Assembly: GCA_902625845.1 (NCBI GenBank) | Contig: CACOCT010000004.1 | Coordinates: 2,778 to 66,777 of the forward strand | Origin: an uncultured Prochlorococcus sp. | GTDB taxonomy: Bacteria > Cyanobacteriota > Cyanobacteriia > PCC-6307 > Cyanobiaceae | DNA: 64,000 bases | Reading direction: 5' to 3' | Made by a program: the position numbers and the translations under genes | Shown here: piece by piece, positions 43,825-57,221 of the stretch | Position numbering within the stretch: position 1 is the stretch's first letter | Layout: each line of letters opens with the position of its first letter | The notes under the pieces: model-generated | Database searches by the model: none | What the model saw: only the letters and a program-made list of their open reading frames with translations | What the model was told of the DNA's origin: nothing

Positions 43825-45645
43825 TTAATATGCAAAATTTATTTTAATTCCAAATTTGTCTTCTCCTCTGAGATTTTGTCCTAAATCCTGAATACCAATA
43901 GCATTAGAGTAATATAAATCTATTGATTTATCAGTACCATAAAGATATCTAAAGGATAATGTATTATTAAATTCAGATTCTTGTTTTAAGAGAGAATTCA
44001 TCTCAGGAATAATTTGTAAATTATCAGCGAGGTTTATATATTTTGATATACCAATAATTCCAAAACTTTCTGCTCCACTAAAGAAATATTTTGGACTAAT
44101 ATTAATCGCTAACCAATTATTTAACCTTACAGTATTTATTAGTTCTGAATAAACATATCCTTGATTAGTATTATCATTTCGTCCAACTGAAGTTCTTATC
44201 GAACTCCAAAAATTATTATTTTTCTGAGGACTAAAAATCATTAATTTGCCTCCTAATCTAAAATTAAGATTATTATTATCAAAATATAAGTTTCTAAGTC
44301 CCCTATTTTTATTTTTTGGGTTTTCAGTATCCTTAAAAGTTCCAATATCAATGAACTCTAACTGGAAAATATTTGAAAGAGAGTATTTATAGGAAAAAAA
44401 GGCATTTCCTCTTGAGTCATAATTTAAACTTCCTTGAGAATTACCAAAATCCTGTATGAGAGCGTTATTAACAGTCAATCCTCCAAAACTCATGAGTTTA
44501 TCTCTAATACTAAGAGGATCTAGAATAGTATCTTTCCCATATGGATTAAAAATTAAATTTGCAGAGTAAAGATTTTTGTTATCCGATGGAATTGTTAGTA
44601 AACCTGTGGAAGGCGTTGATCCATAGGAATTTGAAATTTTTCCTAAAATGCCAATCTTATCATTTAAATCCCAATTCAATCCAAAACTATAGATTGATTT
44701 ATTTGAGTATTTAAGATAGCTATCAAAATAGTTGCTACCAGGTCCTAAAGGATTAGTTATAGATGACAAGAATTTGAGATTATCCGATAAATTAATAACA
44801 ATTCCTGTACCAATATAAAAATTATTTCCATATGAATTTTTACCGACATTTTTTGTGCCTAATTTATCTGGAAGAAAAGTTATTCCAGGCACAAGTATTA
44901 AGGTTAATTTCTTTCCAAATTCTTTTGAAATAGGTAGAGAAAATGCCCCTACTATATTCACGTATTTTTCTTTACCAACTGAATCATCCTTCTCATTAAA
45001 AATACTTTTCGCATTTTTGCCCCCACTGGCATTTCTCCAATATTCTAAAGTTGAGACAGAGGAGACCACCAGTTTTTGTTTTTGATTATCAAATAATTTC
45101 CTCTTATATGAAAGTGCAAAATTTTGCCAGTTATACGGTATGGCTACTCCATCAATGCGATTATATAAATTATCATCCGCTTCAGCAAAATAGAAAGATA
45201 AAATTGAATCATCAGTTATTCCGTAATCGACGAGAAATGATGGATTTTGTTGGCCGGTACCTCCTGAGATACCTCCATCGAAGGAAGATTTCCATTTAAT
45301 AGTTGTTTGAGAATTTCCTTGATATAGAAAATTATTTAAAGGAATAAATGAATCTATATGAGTTAAAACATTTTTGTTAAAAGTTTGTTGTTCATACACA
45401 CTGTAAAAGTCATTTTTATTTTTAAAGTTATAATCACTATTAATTTGATTTGATTCTTCATCAGAGAAATAGCCTTCATCATTTTTATAAGATTTCCATA
45501 TTATTTTATTAATTTTTTTATTATTAATTTTTTCCCACTTTAAAGAATTATCCTCCTCTAAAATTTTTACCTTCTTATTCGCATACACTTTAAATAACGA
45601 TAATGTCTGGAAAATTAATAGAAAAGAAAGAAATAGTTTCATCAT
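43825..45645 (-). CDS. Probable outer-membrane beta-barrel protein, unknown function
   Basis: Signal peptide, alternating aromatic strands, C-terminal GIKINFAY. Confidence 0.7.
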   Translation of the reverse strand: MMKLFLSFLLIFQTLSLFKVYANKKVKILEEDNSLKWEKINNKKINKIIWKSYKNDEGYFSDEESNQINSDYNFKNKNDFYSVYEQQTFNKNVLTHIDSFIPLNNFLYQGNSQTTIKWKSSFDGGISGGTGQQNPSFLVDYGITDDSILSFYFAEADDNLYNRIDGVAIPYNWQNFALSYKRKLFDNQKQKLVVSSVSTLEYWRNASGGKNAKSIFNEKDDSVGKEKYVNIVGAFSLPISKEFGKKLTLILVPGITFLPDKLGTKNVGKNSYGNNFYIGTGIVINLSDNLKFLSSITNPLGPGSNYFDSYLKYSNKSIYSFGLNWDLNDKIGILGKISNSYGSTPSTGLLTIPSDNKNLYSANLIFNPYGKDTILDPLSIRDKLMSFGGLTVNNALIQDFGNSQGSLNYDSRGNAFFSYKYSLSNIFQLEFIDIGTFKDTENPKNKNRGLRNLYFDNNNLNFRLGGKLMIFSPQKNNNFWSSIRTSVGRNDNTNQGYVYSELINTVRLNNWLAINISPKYFFSGAESFGIIGISKYINLADNLQIIPEMNSLLKQESEFNNTLSFRYLYGTDKSIDLYYSNAIGIQDLGQNLRGEDKFGIKINFAY

Positions 45646-45900: not shown

Positions 45901-46923
45901 TTAATCCCATCCAGCACTTTTCATTAATTTAATCGCATCAGAGTTAAAATCTCCAAGCTGCTGTACAGTAACACTATCAGGATTAAAATCACCAAAGTTT
46001 TGAACAATTGGGTTTTGATTAACTTCTTTTAAAGGGTGTTCAAAGGTTGGAGAAGCAATTCCCTTACTTCCTATTGGTGAAGCTAAAAACTCAAGCAATT
46101 TAATAGCCTCTGATTTATTTTTTGCGTACTTAGCAACTCCTCCAGCACTAATATTCACATGAGCAGGATTTGGAGTAAGAACATTTACTTTTCTTGCAAA
46201 TAATTTATCTCTCCTTCCATTAACTCCTGCAAGCATTCTTGCGACATAATAATGATTAACTATTCCAACTCCACATTTTTTCCTAGCTACAGCTCTAACG
46301 ATTGCGATATCTCCGGGGAAAAATGGTTGTGAAACATTTGAAATCATTCCTTTTAACCAATTTCTTGTTGCTTCTTCACCTTTATTAACTATTTGATTAG
46401 CGACTAACGACTGATTATATGGACTTTTTCTATTTCTCAAGCAAACTTTTCCTTTTAGTGAGGGATCTGCTAAATCGGTATAATCCTTAATCTTATTAAT
46501 ATCGACAACCTTTGGATTAGCAACAATTACTCTTACTCTTCTTGTTAAAGCAAACCACTCATTACCTGGATCTCTTAAGTCTTCTGGAACGTCATTGTTT
46601 AAACTTGAAGAATCAATTGGTTGAAGTAAATTAGCTTTTGCCGCATTAGTTATTCTTGCTGCATCTACTAATAAAATAACATCAGCTTGTGAATTTTCCC
46701 CTTCTCTTTTTAATCTCTCTATAAGAGATATTCCAGCTGCTTCAATTAGCCTTACTTTTATACCTGTTTCTTCGGCGAATCTTTTGAATACAATTCTATC
46801 AGTATTGTAATGTCTTCCTGAGTATACCTTTACCTCTTTTTGAGTAGTGTTTGCAGGAGTATTAAAATTAAATAAAATAGGAAATGTTAAAGCTGAAAAG
46901 AAAAATTTCTTAAGTTTTTTCAC
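45901..46923 (-). CDS. futA: Fe(III) ABC transporter substrate-binding protein (FutA/IdiA)
   Basis: YSGRHY, YNQSL and VNHYY iron-ligand motifs. Confidence 0.93.
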   Translation of the reverse strand: MKKLKKFFFSALTFPILFNFNTPANTTQKEVKVYSGRHYNTDRIVFKRFAEETGIKVRLIEAAGISLIERLKREGENSQADVILLVDAARITNAAKANLLQPIDSSSLNNDVPEDLRDPGNEWFALTRRVRVIVANPKVVDINKIKDYTDLADPSLKGKVCLRNRKSPYNQSLVANQIVNKGEEATRNWLKGMISNVSQPFFPGDIAIVRAVARKKCGVGIVNHYYVARMLAGVNGRRDKLFARKVNVLTPNPAHVNISAGGVAKYAKNKSEAIKLLEFLASPIGSKGIASPTFEHPLKEVNQNPIVQNFGDFNPDSVTVQQLGDFNSDAIKLMKSAGWD

Positions 46924-47025
46924 TTTTAATATTGATATCTATGGTTACTTTATCTCTATCTATAGAAATAGAAATTTAAAAGATATTTTACTTACACATT
47001 AATGTATCATTTCTACCTTTATTAA

Positions 47026-47691
47026 ATGAATTATTTAACTTGTCCTTTACTTCTTGATGAAGAAATTAAAATATTAAAAGCAAATTTGTCTTCCGAGAAT
47101 AGTGATTGGGAAAACGGAAAAAAAACAGCAGGAAGTCTCGCTTCCAAAGTAAAAAATAATTTGCAATTAAATAGAAATTCAGAAATTTCAAAAAATAATA
47201 CTAAATTTATAGTAAAAAAACTTTTAACTAATTCACTTATTAAAAGCTTTGCTCTTCCAAAAAAAATACACGGCATTATGTTTACAAAATCATCAAAGGG
47301 TATGAGATATGGCCGCCATGTCGATAATGCCTATATGTCTTCAGGAAGAGCAGATTTATCATTCTCTATTTTCTTAAATAAAAAAGATTCTTATGGAGGA
47401 GGAGAGTTGGTTGTTGAAAATATAAATACCGAAAACAAATTTAAACTAAATCAAGGGGAAATTATTTTATACCCTAGTACATATTTACATTCAGTAGAGG
47501 AAATAACAAATGGAGAAAGATTAGTATGTGTTGGGTGGATAGAAAGTTATGTTAAAAGTATTGAAGAGAGGGAATATCTTTTTGATATGGATGCTGGAGC
47601 TAGAGGAATACTTGCAAAATATGGGAGGTCAGATGAGTTAGATTTAATTTTCAAATCGTATTCAAACTTGCTGAGAGTTTTAGGCAATTAG
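47026..47691 (+). CDS. piuC: PKHD-type Fe(II)/2-oxoglutarate hydroxylase (PiuC/YbiX family)
   Basis: W..G..TAG.....K.N.Q, YGRHVDN, Y.GGEL and YPST.LH.V.....GER motifs. Confidence 0.9.
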   Translation: MNYLTCPLLLDEEIKILKANLSSENSDWENGKKTAGSLASKVKNNLQLNRNSEISKNNTKFIVKKLLTNSLIKSFALPKKIHGIMFTKSSKGMRYGRHVDNAYMSSGRADLSFSIFLNKKDSYGGGELVVENINTENKFKLNQGEIILYPSTYLHSVEEITNGERLVCVGWIESYVKSIEEREYLFDMDAGARGILAKYGRSDELDLIFKSYSNLLRVLGN

Positions 47692-47763
47692 GAGAATCAT
47701 ATGTTACAACTAATAGATAATTGCAAAAAGAATTACTAATATAATAATAATTTCTAAGTTAAA

Positions 47764-48003
47764 ATGCCTAAAAAAAGTTCTATAGCAATGTTTATCGCTG
47801 CAACGAGTGCGTTAGCTATTTCTTCTACTGATAGTATTGCTATTAAAGCTGGAGAAAATGATTTAGGGGGAACTAAAGAATGGAATACTGATATGCCTTT
47901 GGATGCAGAATTTATACTTGATGAAAAAGCTCAAAAGTTAGCCGATGAAGCTAAAGCATCAAGTACATGTATTCCCATTGGAGAAGGTGAAAACTGCTGG
48001 TAA
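47764..48003 (+). CDS. Small secreted acidic peptide with C-terminal CIPIGEGENCW
   Basis: ATG start, signal-peptide-like N-terminus, strong terminator directly downstream. Confidence 0.78.
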   Translation: MPKKSSIAMFIAATSALAISSTDSIAIKAGENDLGGTKEWNTDMPLDAEFILDEKAQKLADEAKASSTCIPIGEGENCW

Positions 48004-48030
48004 AAAGATTAAAAGTCTTTATTAAAAAAT

Positions 48031-48057
48031 GAGCCATAAAATGGCTCGTTTTTTTTT
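48031..48057 (+). terminator. Intrinsic terminator after the peptide gene
   Basis: GAGCCAT-AAA-ATGGCTC-G-T9. Confidence 0.85.
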
Positions 48058-48062
48058 GGAAT

Positions 48063-48091
48063 AAAAAAAGAGGCCTCAATCTGAGACCTCT
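48063..48091 (-). terminator. Intrinsic terminator of the porin operon
   Basis: Minus strand AGAGGTCTCA-GAT-TGAGGCCTCT followed by a T run. Confidence 0.85.
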
Positions 48092-48115
48092 AGATTATGT
48101 GTAAGAGAATTTAGT

Positions 48116-49318
48116 TTAGAAACTAAATGTAGATTTTAAAATTACACCAGTTTCATCTGCAGTAGATCCACTATTATCTTTACTGTAGATAAGTGGTGTT
48201 ATGGTAATGCCATCAGCATAATTATATGAGTAGAAAACTTCATACATAGTTAATGCATCAGCATTTTCGTTATAAGGTTCTTTAGAACCTATCGCAGCTC
48301 CTAAAGTTCCATCTCCAACTTCATCCCACTGTATACCTATGAAATAGTGTGATGTTTGATCTGAAGTAGTTCCTGCAACAGAATCATCATGATTTGTTTC
48401 AAGCCCAGCACTTATAGATGGGAAATTAGGAAGATCAGGTGAGTAGTAAGCATTGAAACCAACACTCTGGGTATGTCCAACAGCTTTATTTAAAGTGATG
48501 ACACGGTTATTATTTGCATCATGGTTTTCAATATTTGCCCATGATACAGACACACCATAAGTATCTCCTATGTAAGAGAATTGAGCTCCAATAGCATCTG
48601 TGGATTCTTTGCTAACGAAACCTTTGGTTGAATTACCTTGTCCCTCATAAGCGAGAGCGGCAGTAAAACCGTTTCCGAAATCAAAGCTTGCACCTAGCGC
48701 GGAACCAAGTCCTTCATCTACATTTGCAGCTGATATTCCACAATCGGTGAATGTATCTGCTTGAGCTCCATATACACATGCAGTGTTGTAAAGAGCACTA
48801 CCAGCAACTCCATCGCCAAATGCATAGAACGCGGACACTCTATCTCCTAATGGTGTTGTATAGGAAATTGTATCAATAGTAACTTTCTTACTACTATCTG
48901 TCATGTCAAGTTCTGTATAACCTTTAGAGACACCAGCCTGCATAACTACATCTAAAGAATCATCACCTGTAAAACTACTTTGTAGAGCAATTTCATAATC
49001 GAAATTAGCTACATAAGTTTCATCAGCTCCGCCTTCTTCTTTTCCAATAGCGAAATTAGAAGTAAAACTAGCTTTAGTTGTTGCAGAAAAAGTGTCTACA
49101 TCAAAATCTTCACTAGTTTGATTTTGATTAACGCCTTCTCCACCAGCAAGAAGAGGATTCTTACTTGAGAGAGGTTTAAAGGTATCAAGTGTAACTTGTG
49201 CTTGATCTTGAGAGTAACTAGTTACATCTCTAAAATTAGATTCATTAGCATTAGCTGCTAGTGGAGCAAAAAGTCCAAGAGCTGCAGGTGCTAGAAGTAA
49301 TTTCTGAAATAATTTCAT
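48116..49318 (-). CDS. Cyanobacterial porin (Som/OprB-like) lacking the SLH domain
   Basis: MKLFQKLL signal peptide, SSFTGDDSL, YEVFYSY, terminal STFSF; ATG at 49318 preferred. Confidence 0.85.
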   Translation of the reverse strand: MKLFQKLLLAPAALGLFAPLAANANESNFRDVTSYSQDQAQVTLDTFKPLSSKNPLLAGGEGVNQNQTSEDFDVDTFSATTKASFTSNFAIGKEEGGADETYVANFDYEIALQSSFTGDDSLDVVMQAGVSKGYTELDMTDSSKKVTIDTISYTTPLGDRVSAFYAFGDGVAGSALYNTACVYGAQADTFTDCGISAANVDEGLGSALGASFDFGNGFTAALAYEGQGNSTKGFVSKESTDAIGAQFSYIGDTYGVSVSWANIENHDANNNRVITLNKAVGHTQSVGFNAYYSPDLPNFPSISAGLETNHDDSVAGTTSDQTSHYFIGIQWDEVGDGTLGAAIGSKEPYNENADALTMYEVFYSYNYADGITITPLIYSKDNSGSTADETGVILKSTFSF

Positions 49319-49333
49319 TGTACTTCTCACTAA

Positions 49334-50797
49334 TTAGAACTTAAATGTAGTAGCTACGACAAAGCCGAAGATATTATCATTTGTAACTGTAGTGTTTTTA
49401 AGATCGGAACCACCGAAGATACCAGGTGTGATTTCAATAGAATCATTAGGCTTGAAAGAGTAATAAGCTTCCCACATGAATGGTTCGATACTCTTAGTTC
49501 CAGAAGTTGTATGGTTTGAACCTTTAATTGGCTGACCTAAAGCTATACCAATTGTGTCGTCTGCCTGGAACATGTCTGTCCAATTCAAACCAACTGAATA
49601 ACCTTCACCTTCTTTAAATCCATTTGTAACACCTGAGAAAGCAACAGTATCATAACCAATTGATATAGATGGAACTGCTGTTCCTTGATCTTCTGGTCTC
49701 CACCATCCTCTAAGGGCCCAACCTGTAGTGTCTTTACCAGCATTTTTTACTACTGAGTAATAAGGATAACCACCAGTAAATCCATTATTTTGAGTTGTGT
49801 ATGTAGCTGATAAATGATAATTATCACCAGTATAAGCACCCATCACGTTGACTTTGTTTACGTCATCTTCAGTAAATAGTCCTGTTGTAGTGGAGCCTTT
49901 CTTAGAGTTAGCTGTTATAGATGAAGCAAACCCATTGTCACCTACATACTTTAAACCAGCACCAACACTTGTACTTGCACCAAAAGCGATACCATGACCA
50001 CCAAATCTAAATGCCTTCAAAACTTTAGGCTTATATACAGATGGAGTTGCAGCTAACATGTAATAGTTTTCGATCAATGGACCAAAGGTAGCTGTAACTT
50101 TATCTCCAACTGGGAAAGTATACCAAATTTTGTCTACACGAAGAATGTTGTCTTTAGCACTTGTTTCGTTGTGGTAAGTTCCTGGCTTATTACCAAAATT
50201 AGTCTTAGCAAAATCACCACCACCTGTCTTAAGTCTTACATATAAATTGTCATCACCAGTAAAGGTAGTGTTTAAATTCATTTGGTAGACATAAGCAGCA
50301 CCAAAAGCTTCTGTATCTCCGTAAGTATCATCGTTACCATCAACACCACCAAGAAGGAAAACTGCTTTACCGTCTAATGTAGTTGTGTCAGAGAAAGTAC
50401 CTGCTTCGAATTCATTCATTCTAGCTTCGATACCATCAACGCGGCCTCTTAATAATGCAAGTTCACTTGAAAATTCATCAATAAGAGTTCTTTCGATGTT
50501 AGATACTTCAGCTACGTCTCCTAAGCAAGAGTTGACAATAGAAGCAGCTTCAAAACGTGTTAATGCTTTATCGTTTACTTCAATGTCACAACCTCTTGAC
50601 TGTACAAGATCTTTAATGGATTGGTGTGCCCAATCTCCTGGCTGAACATTTAAATAATTGTTTGTAAATCCTGCAGACTTAGAGCTATTGGAATAGCTGT
50701 TCATATCTTCAAGATTGACGTCAGTTGCTTGAGCAGCAAATGGAGCAATCATGCTCGCTGCTGCACCTGCGACCAACAATTGTTGGAAGAGTTTCAT
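49334..50797 (-). CDS. som: Cyanobacterial SLH-domain porin (Som / iron-uptake-porin family)
   Basis: VQPGDWA..., LTRFEAA, coiled coil, FSDTTTLDG, LNTTFTGDD, terminal TTFKF. Confidence 0.92.
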   Translation of the reverse strand: MKLFQQLLVAGAAASMIAPFAAQATDVNLEDMNSYSNSSKSAGFTNNYLNVQPGDWAHQSIKDLVQSRGCDIEVNDKALTRFEAASIVNSCLGDVAEVSNIERTLIDEFSSELALLRGRVDGIEARMNEFEAGTFSDTTTLDGKAVFLLGGVDGNDDTYGDTEAFGAAYVYQMNLNTTFTGDDNLYVRLKTGGGDFAKTNFGNKPGTYHNETSAKDNILRVDKIWYTFPVGDKVTATFGPLIENYYMLAATPSVYKPKVLKAFRFGGHGIAFGASTSVGAGLKYVGDNGFASSITANSKKGSTTTGLFTEDDVNKVNVMGAYTGDNYHLSATYTTQNNGFTGGYPYYSVVKNAGKDTTGWALRGWWRPEDQGTAVPSISIGYDTVAFSGVTNGFKEGEGYSVGLNWTDMFQADDTIGIALGQPIKGSNHTTSGTKSIEPFMWEAYYSFKPNDSIEITPGIFGGSDLKNTTVTNDNIFGFVVATTFKF

Positions 50798-50801
50798 TTT
50801 A

Positions 50802-50810
50802 CCTCACACA
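50802..50810 (-). promoter_or_regulatory. Yfr1-complementary site overlapping the porin RBS
   Basis: mRNA UGUGUGAGG is the exact complement of Yfr1 CCUCACACA (3941-3949). Confidence 0.75.
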
Positions 50811-50884
50811 AAATAACCCTATAAAAGGGGCATTACAACTTTAGTTGGATTATTCAGAAACTGCCAGGATCAAAAGATTCATTA

Positions 50885-50906
50885 ATTTGTATATTTTTTT
50901 ACAAAT
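50885..50906. promoter_or_regulatory. Palindromic operator upstream of the porin operon (NtcA-box-like)
   Basis: ATTTGTA-N8-TACAAAT. Confidence 0.5.
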
Positions 50907-55821: not shown

Positions 55822-56346
55822 TTAAGCTAATGAAGGAATTTCACTTTTTAGTTGTGAAGCCCAAGTTTCTAAACGAGAGTCAGTTAAATCTGATTCACTA
55901 TCCTCATCTAGTGGTAAACCACAGAAGCTTTCTCCAATAATACTCTTTGACTCTTCAAATGTATATGAAGATTTATCCACATACCCAACCATATCAGCTC
56001 CTGCTTTCTGGAAGTAACTATGTAGCTCTTCCATTGCATCACAATAGTTTTCTGTATATGTAGAAGAATCACCAAGACCAAAAATAGCTACTTTTTTACC
56101 AGATAAACTAAGCTCACCAATATCTTCCAATATTGAATCCCAAGCAGTTCCAGACCTTTCTTCATCTGCACCAGTATTCCATGTTGGGATGCCACAAATA
56201 ATTCCATCAAGGCCTTCTAGCTCTGAAAGATCATCTACATCTGATACATCTTTAGGTGACTCTGCAGATGAAATGAAATTGTGAAGACGATCTGCAACGT
56301 CTTCTGTTTTTCCAGTTGTAGTAGCGTAGTAAATTCCTACAGTCAT
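55822..56346 (-). CDS. isiB: Flavodoxin
   Basis: ATTTGKTE, PTWNTG, FGLGD and GLPLDED motifs. Confidence 0.95.
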   Translation of the reverse strand: MTVGIYYATTTGKTEDVADRLHNFISSAESPKDVSDVDDLSELEGLDGIICGIPTWNTGADEERSGTAWDSILEDIGELSLSGKKVAIFGLGDSSTYTENYCDAMEELHSYFQKAGADMVGYVDKSSYTFEESKSIIGESFCGLPLDEDSESDLTDSRLETWASQLKSEIPSLA

Positions 56347-56489: not shown

Positions 56490-57221
56490 ATGACAAAAAT
56501 CGAAGTAAAAAATCTTTTAACGAATTTGATTAATGATTTTCATTATGAAAAAGCAAAAAAATATAAACTATTAGTATTTGTAGGTTTGTTAGGAGATTTT
56601 GATAGTTTTGAATATGCTATTAACCTAACTAAATTTATAACTTCAAATAAAATTAATAATCTAGATATTTTTTTTATAGCGATAGGTAATCAAAAAGGTA
56701 AAGAAAAATTTTGCAAATATACTGGTTTCCCAAAAAACAATCTAAAAGTCGTTAATAATAATCAACTACACAATCTTTTAGGAGCTTCAAATGGTTTAAA
56801 CATTGGTTTAGGTGGTTGGATTAATATGACACTAATGCTAATGGGAATTGGTTCTTCAAAAACGTTAGTAGAAGTTATTAGAGGATACACAGGAGACAAA
56901 GACTCTAATCAGATTTACAATGATTATGATCAAATAAATTTATTTAATTTTTTTAAATTCTCAGGTAAATTATTTGGAAAATCATTTGGGAAAGGCTATT
57001 TAAGACCATTTGAGTTGGCTACATTTAGATTGAGTAATATGATTGAAATTTTTAAAAACTGGAAAGACTATATGATTGATACTAATTATTTACCACAAAG
57101 ATCTTGTACTTTTATTATTGATCAAAATAATGATGTGATATATAAATATTTTTCAAAAGATATACTCAATTACTCAAATAACATGAAATCGCCTTTAGAT
57201 TTTCTAAAAAAATATCTATAG
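56490..57221 (+). CDS. AhpC/TSA-like (peroxiredoxin-like) protein
   Basis: LGDFDSFEYA, EV.RGY.GD and RPFELAT motifs. Confidence 0.75.
   Translation: MTKIEVKNLLTNLINDFHYEKAKKYKLLVFVGLLGDFDSFEYAINLTKFITSNKINNLDIFFIAIGNQKGKEKFCKYTGFPKNNLKVVNNNQLHNLLGASNGLNIGLGGWINMTLMLMGIGSSKTLVEVIRGYTGDKDSNQIYNDYDQINLFNFFKFSGKLFGKSFGKGYLRPFELATFRLSNMIEIFKNWKDYMIDTNYLPQRSCTFIIDQNNDVIYKYFSKDILNYSNNMKSPLDFLKKYL

Follow-up and report, generated by a model that had tools for sequence, protein, structure and literature searches.

The locus described here is a five-gene block in a 64,000-nucleotide stretch of an uncultured Prochlorococcus genome (the whole stretch is called the window below), in which futA and the divergent piuC are followed by a gene for a 79-amino-acid secreted peptide and two porin genes, por404 and por487. 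This block is an old gene neighbourhood of nearly all marine Prochlorococcus and Synechococcus, and it has been lost by one MED4-like subclade. We conclude that the locus is probably this clade's copy of an ancestral, vertically inherited picocyanobacterial neighbourhood for iron acquisition. The window spans positions 2778-66777 of contig C4 of the source genome (G000), a low-GC assembly of 1.18 Mb that is 66% complete.

Origin of the futA-glyQ neighbourhood

The conservation of the block was evaluated in a genus sample of 201 genomes, 68 of them of high quality and many of the 201 incomplete. The piuC gene was present in 140 of the 201 genomes and in 56 of the 68 high-quality ones. All 18 same-genus piuC loci (13 from closed genomes) showed one gene order, with piuC and the peptide gene pointing away from futA, and one or more porin genes and glyQ facing them on the opposite strand. 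The same order was observed in 20/20 loci from other genera of the family, which represent all low-light Prochlorococcus lineages and marine Synechococcus, and glyQ was the next gene in the Prochlorococcus ones. We take these outgroup genomes to be SS120, MIT9211, NATL2A and MIT9313, and those of 2.2-2.9 Mb to be marine Synechococcus. Co-occurrence of the genes, which the original prediction had put forward as a check, was borne out, since 38/38 piuC loci carry the peptide and porin genes beside futA and 4/4 loci without piuC lack all three.

The original prediction had read positions 47026-50797 as an accessory insertion between futA and glyQ in some lineages that added a TonB-independent iron route, and it placed the two genes side by side in MED4-like strains. 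That placement was correct. In all four genomes without piuC that were examined, futA directly adjoins glyQ, and piuC, the peptide gene and the porin gene are missing there; one of the four is a closed genome of 1,657,990 bp that we take to be MED4. In addition, piuC was not found in 61/201 genus genomes, many of which are incomplete. The polarity inferred from the junction was wrong, however. As the block is also present, in the same order, in low-light lineages and marine Synechococcus, it is ancestral, and MED4-like genomes owe their futA-glyQ junction to its deletion. Moreover, the gene trees agree with the clades, the block is bordered by no integrase gene, tRNA gene or repeat in the window, and apart from a higher GC in the porin genes, base composition does not mark an island. 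A closed genome of 1,704,176 bp, presumably the high-light I (HLI) strain MIT9515, retains the block, indicating that its absence elsewhere is a recent loss. An insertion is therefore highly improbable. The genomes without piuC are accordingly not labelled HLI here, as the presumed HLI strain MIT9515 keeps the block.

The deletion coincides with a change in FutA. In the FutA tree, the high-light (HL) sequences form one clade (support 100/99), within which the stem branch of the group without piuC measures 0.60 substitutions per site, compared with 0.13 for the window's clade and 0.04 for other HL genomes. The same genomes without piuC stand on short branches in the glyQ tree. These branch lengths point to either rapid divergence or replacement of futA along with the deletion; as a single event, this coupling is suggestive only. 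No earlier description of FutA divergence in the MED4 subclade was found, and the observation appears to be new.

Two further observations concern the surroundings of the block. The part of this region that varies is the stretch between fer2 and futA, on the far side of futA from piuC, where a 606-amino-acid open reading frame (ORF; window 43825-45645, minus strand) is present, absent or fragmented among relatives. Its product carries a signal peptide and ends in ...KINFAY. It matched neither Pfam nor NCBIfam, while its Atlas features suggest, as a lead only, the outer-membrane barrel families DUF5777 and Phenol_MetA_deg. Separately, one genome of Synechococcus size (G296:C2) holds two futA-piuC-peptide-porin blocks, at about 916 kb and about 1,327 kb, and its second piuC is broken by stop codons.

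Gene content of the block

All five genes lie between cobQ/fer2 and glyQ, at the coordinates and in the divergent futA/piuC arrangement originally predicted:

45901-46923, minus strand: futA/idiA, Pfam SBP_bac_6, matching PDB 8c4y
47026-47691, plus strand: piuC, NCBIfam NF003974
47764-48003, plus strand: gene of the 79-amino-acid secreted peptide, no family match
48031-48057, plus strand: intrinsic terminator of the peptide gene, -13.6 kcal/mol, z -5.85, then U9
48060-48091, minus strand: intrinsic terminator of the porin operon, -14.6 kcal/mol, z -3.65, then U7
48116-49330, minus strand: por404, no family, 25% identity to por487
49334-50797, minus strand: por487, NCBIfam NF033921
50919-51764, minus strand: glyQ, adjoining the block past por487

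From futA to glyQ, the intergenic gaps are 102, 72, 112, 3 and 121 bp. The two hairpins between the peptide gene and the porin operon each carry a U-run on their own strand and thus form convergent terminators, as the original prediction of back-to-back strong terminators had it. It was also right that piuC is linked to porins and a peptide and not to a receptor gene, its neighbours being futA, the peptide gene and the porin genes. Furthermore, the TonB-dependent receptor barrel PF00593, reported absent from the window, had no match in the whole source assembly (66% complete).

FutA was identified by SBP_bac_6 (57.9 bits) and by its similarity to two solved FutA structures, that of Prochlorococcus (8c4y, 469 bits over residues 27-340) and 2pt1 (243 bits). 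The segments VYSGRHYNTD, RKSPYNQSLV and IVNHYYVARM, which carry the iron-binding tyrosines of the FutA structures, are identical in the alignment of FutA with 8c4y.

PiuC passed the NCBIfam model NF003974, 'Fe2+-dependent dioxygenase', with 303.8 bits (cut-off 143), and resembled the solved structures of PiuC and Sbal_3634, its matches to PDB 3dkq and 9ghl reaching about 105-111 bits. By family it is a PKHD-type 2-oxoglutarate (2OG)/Fe(II) hydroxylase, and it lacks a signal peptide. Residues H98, D100, H155 and R165, which correspond to the 2-His-1-carboxylate triad and the 2OG-binding arginine, are invariant across 19 orthologues. The arrangement resembles piuA-piuC of P. aeruginosa and fiu-ybiX of E. 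coli, in which a PKHD-type hydroxylase with an intact HxD...H...R signature stands beside an outer-membrane iron entry gene. The partner there is a TonB-dependent receptor, whereas here it is a porin, and a secreted peptide gene sits between the hydroxylase and the outer-membrane gene.

Of the two porins, por487 passed the model NF033921 (por_somb, 'iron uptake porin') with 144.3 bits (cut-off 100), and synteny makes it orthologous to the porin that is linked to futA in all marine picocyanobacteria. The smaller por404 matched no NCBIfam or Pfam family and did not pass NF033921; it shares the signal peptide and 25% identity over the barrel with por487 (E 5e-19), and is a short porin of the Som type that lacks the N-terminal domain seen in por487. 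Neither porin matched the Pfam SLH or OprB domains, or any other Pfam family, even at E 10.

Most HL genomes have one porin at the locus. Two are found in the source genome and its nearest relatives (G081, G128 and G144), all of them 59-67% complete. Other HL genomes carry, at a distance of about 100 kb, tandem ORFs of 380-410 amino acids to which por404 is 40-53% identical. No second gene of this Som type was found in the source genome, and the three relatives gave one match each (E <= 1e-60), so a further por404-type copy elsewhere in these four genomes is improbable. Judged by sequence, this clade's second porin is the Som-type gene found some 100 kb distant in other genomes, and this relocation appears to be new. 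The tandem HL porins resemble Som porins of the PMM1119/PMM1121 type, which in Prochlorococcus are reportedly targets of the small RNA Yfr1; the difference is that the only copy found in the window's clade lies 3 bp downstream of the futA-linked porin, versus about 100 kb away elsewhere. Two low-light genomes, one of which we take to be MIT9211, also have two porins at the locus, both of the por487 type.

Metatranscriptome contigs from four runs of one study match both porin genes, some with 0 differences (0-3 for por404). Such contigs show that porin-like transcripts exist, and they cannot rank genes or show transcript starts or an iron response; the thin contig cover on piuC and the peptide gene is uninformative. 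The 5' leader of the porin operon (window 50798-50840, minus strand) contains a hairpin, CCCCTTTTATAGGG, followed by GTGTGAGG before the start codon, and this arrangement is kept from Prochlorococcus to Synechococcus.

The 79-amino-acid peptide has a Sec-like signal, a GG.KEW.TD motif and a C-terminal CIPIGEGENCW loop. When 39 orthologues ranging from HL Prochlorococcus to Synechococcus were aligned, positions 35-43 (GG.KEW.TD) and the last 11 residues, C(I/V)P(I/V)GEGENCW, were invariant or nearly so, and the middle was variable. The whole block is also present in a high-GC genome (G257), where the peptide has GEGE repeats. Pfam and NCBIfam scans and Atlas look-ups gave no family for the peptide, and it was not found in the phage genomes or IMG/VR contigs searched. 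In public data, clustering at 90% identity divides the family into 5951 clusters, all of them unnamed and lacking Pfam domains, and a profile search of 1.84 billion representatives returned only 119 matches (50% identity representatives). We found no earlier description of this unnamed family, which appears to be new.

The close association of piuC with the peptide gene raises the idea of an enzyme-substrate pair, akin to a RiPP-like precursor and its modifying enzyme, in which PiuC would hydroxylate a residue of the disulfide loop C(I/V)P(I/V)GEGENCW (e.g. Pro or Asn) before Sec export. The product would be an acidic peptide, either periplasmic or secreted, that binds Fe(III) and works with porin and FutA, capturing iron at or behind the porin and handing it to FutA. 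The two genes are adjacent and co-oriented in 38/38 loci, 54/54 peptide-positive relatives in the family sample carry piuC, and the 11-residue loop is invariant over the whole radiation. Moreover, one divergent carrier of the loop (P0225) adjoins a membrane-anchored 2OG-Fe(II) oxygenase of another subfamily. However, the peptide is exported while PiuC has no signal peptide, a further 27 piuC-positive relatives show no peptide, and the peptide gene has its own terminator and its own operator-like box. To our knowledge, the proteobacterial PiuC/YbiX homologues have no such peptide neighbour. Other divergent loop carriers adjoin unrelated genes, and PiuC of P. aeruginosa has been reported to influence the expression of piuA, the neighbouring receptor gene (PMC11878004). 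When PiuC was modelled in complex with Fe and residues 28-79 of the peptide, the prediction scored 0.00 with an uncertain partner fold, and is evidence neither way. We consider such a pair a long shot. If it were real, nearly all marine picocyanobacteria would share a siderophore-like shuttle encoded by a gene, in the form of this peptide, and its loss in the MED4 subclade would have forced a re-adaptation of FutA, accounting for the stem branch of 0.60.

AT-rich organisms of uncertain origin are the source of the few very divergent proteins with this loop. P0225 is an 82-amino-acid membrane-anchored protein ending in CIPIGEGENCW, encoded on an AT-rich Tara metagenome scaffold of 1165 bp (L082), where its gene is divergent from that of the oxygenase (phrog_61), which belongs to another subfamily than PiuC. 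The others adjoin a mitochondrial-carrier gene, purH or fpg; the carrier beside the mitochondrial-carrier gene (L084) hints at a eukaryote or giant virus.

Shared palindrome and candidate regulon

Operator-like boxes of the GTA-N8-TAC type were located in the block and at isiB, a canonical iron-stress gene that lies outside the block in the window:

46935-46948, plus strand: box near futA, GTA-N8-TAC type, ATATCTATGGTTAC here and GTATCTATGGTTAC in most HL genomes
47004-47017, plus strand: degenerate box beside piuC, GTATCATTTCTACC, part of a composite TAC-N8-GTAT...TAC also found at isiB
47694-47707, plus strand: box after the piuC stop codon, GAATCATATGTTAC, 70 nt upstream of the peptide gene
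50888-50903, minus strand: perfect palindromic box, TGTAAAAAAATATACA, 105 nt upstream of por487
55822-56346, minus strand: isiB, flavodoxin, PF00258
56419-56434, minus strand: box upstream of isiB, AGTATAAATTTTTACA, about 87 nt upstream

These boxes are conserved in position as well as in sequence. Every HL locus has the futA box, placed 12-25 nt ahead of the futA start, the peptide-gene box is kept as GAATCATTTTATAC or TCATTTGATAC from HL Prochlorococcus to Synechococcus, and the porin box lies at -103 to -108 in nearly all Prochlorococcus loci. In the source genome, the por487 box is one of only five intergenic perfect TGTA-N8-TACA sites. The isiB box reads GTATAAAATTTTAC in all HL loci, including that of the genome taken as MED4; it carries the same upstream TAC-N8 element, and a TAATTT follows 22 nt further on, the spacing of a class II activator site. 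On the other side of the spacer with this box lies an AhpC/TSA-like antioxidant gene (window 56490-57221, plus strand), which is transcribed divergently from isiB.

Exact-pattern searches were too strict for the degenerate sites of the source genome, and a weight matrix was built from the conserved sites instead. Only 12 matches above 13 bits were obtained in its 1.18 Mb, and two notable ones among the non-training matches lay upstream of a futC-like ATP-binding cassette (ABC) ATPase gene and upstream of psaA. The futC-like site was the best non-training match and reads TGTATAAAATTATACA in 5/5 closed HL genomes. At this locus (C41:1544-4344, L091), the gene of the futC-like ATPase (C41:1620-2681; PF00005, with 224 bits to a ferric ABC model, under the cut-off of that model) is followed by genes for a ferritin and for a third CRP-family regulator (C41:3751-4344), which is neither NtcA nor PtrA.

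Since the palindrome is shared by the block, isiB and the futC-like/ferritin locus, these transcription units are probably co-regulated. The presence of the palindrome upstream of the porin and peptide genes, isiB and the locus of the futC-like ATPase, ferritin and CRP-family regulator suggests one iron regulon. Its regulator is likely a CRP-family protein other than NtcA; a Fur-family protein or NtcA itself is possible. No earlier description of the palindrome was found, and it appears to be new. The closest parallel is idiA-idiB of Synechococcus elongatus, for which Michel and co-workers reportedly described, in 2001, a CRP/FNR-family activator of idiA. Both cases have a CRP-family-type palindrome near futA/idiA and a CRP-family gene beside iron genes (here ferritin and the futC-like gene), whereas the candidate regulator gene here is not adjacent to futA.

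Iron uptake in marine picocyanobacteria

The model that we favour starts at the outer membrane, where por487 would admit inorganic iron without TonB, and por404, the relocated Som-type porin co-transcribed with it, would probably do likewise. FutA would then bind the periplasmic iron and pass it to a FutB/FutC importer encoded elsewhere, with piuC and the 79-amino-acid peptide gene as conserved accessory genes. The units carrying the GTA-N8-TAC-type palindrome would probably be co-regulated with isiB and the futC-like/ferritin locus in an iron-stress regulon. What the sequences show directly are the identities of the genes, their synteny, the direction of gain and loss, the motifs and the terminators, whereas transport of iron by these porins, control by iron and a function for PiuC or the peptide are our inference.

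The TonB-independent route from porin to FutA, proposed in the original prediction, agrees with por487 passing the 'iron uptake porin' model. It is not new, as iron entry through porins followed by FutA capture without TonB is a published cyanobacterial model (PMC9723758 and PMC10912551, both citing Qiu 2018/2021). In Fe-limited Synechococcus, IdiA/FutA and putative Fe-uptake porins are among the most increased proteins (PMC10912551), Fe-responsive oprB-like porin transcripts have been observed in the field (PMC9723758), and piuC and som have already been treated as 'iron genes' differing between lineages of Prochlorococcus (bioRxiv 10.1101/2020.03.09.980698). The locus resembles the known FutA/IdiA-FutBC system with Slr1908-type porins (por_somb) in that FutA is 65% identical to the solved MED4 protein, a porin passes por_somb, and no TonB-dependent receptor was found. 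It differs in that the porin gene has futA, piuC and the gene of an unnamed peptide as physical neighbours, and in that a second porin, of the Som type, has entered the operon.

Several observations weigh against an iron-specific role. The boxes of the futA-piuC spacer are degenerate in the window itself. GTA-N8-TAC is the established NtcA consensus, which the box formally matches, and nitrogen control is possible. The piuC gene lies away from futA and the porin gene in 4/6 larger high-GC relatives examined, so its function is independent of the neighbourhood described here. Neither porin matches Pfam, and both may simply be general major porins; nothing in their sequences indicates iron selectivity, and the RNA contigs that match them are very abundant. 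The in-situ low-iron cluster of Prochlorococcus has been described with isiA, isiB and idiA, in a text that does not contain the word 'porin' (PMC11970481).

Some of these points would fit a conserved neighbourhood that is not specific to iron, with porins as general diffusion channels, boxes that are NtcA sites and a merely historical linkage to futA, the cluster answering to nitrogen or carbon status or to general envelope needs. A porin homologue of SS120 was, in addition, raised 1.4-fold under azaserine-induced nitrogen stress (PMC5451487). However, the same box precedes isiB and the futC-like/ferritin locus, and the genuine NtcA site of amt1 scored lower on the weight matrix, under its threshold. 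por487 also passes the curated NCBI model for iron uptake porins, and it is under Fe limitation that Synechococcus raises such porins together with IdiA (PMC10912551). We therefore regard a role unrelated to iron as unlikely, and retain iron acquisition as the probable function of the block. As a side observation on the nitrogen genes, the source genome has two ammonium-transporter genes (C19:12812-14044 and C14:6114-7301; PF00909, 392 and 369 bits), of which the C19 copy alone is preceded by a clear NtcA site.

In large areas of the ocean, iron is limiting for picocyanobacteria, and how it crosses their outer membrane is still debated. Across essentially all lineages, this locus brings futA/idiA, the iron marker known best, together with genes for a porin, a hydroxylase and an ultra-conserved secreted peptide. 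The palindrome that these units share points to a putative regulon that can be tested, and the CRP-family gene next to ferritin is a candidate for its regulator. The exception among the lineages is the MED4 subclade, the model strain of which has served for the FutA structure and for iron transcriptomes. Results obtained with MED4, in which three of the genes are missing and FutA has diverged strongly, may therefore not hold for most Prochlorococcus.

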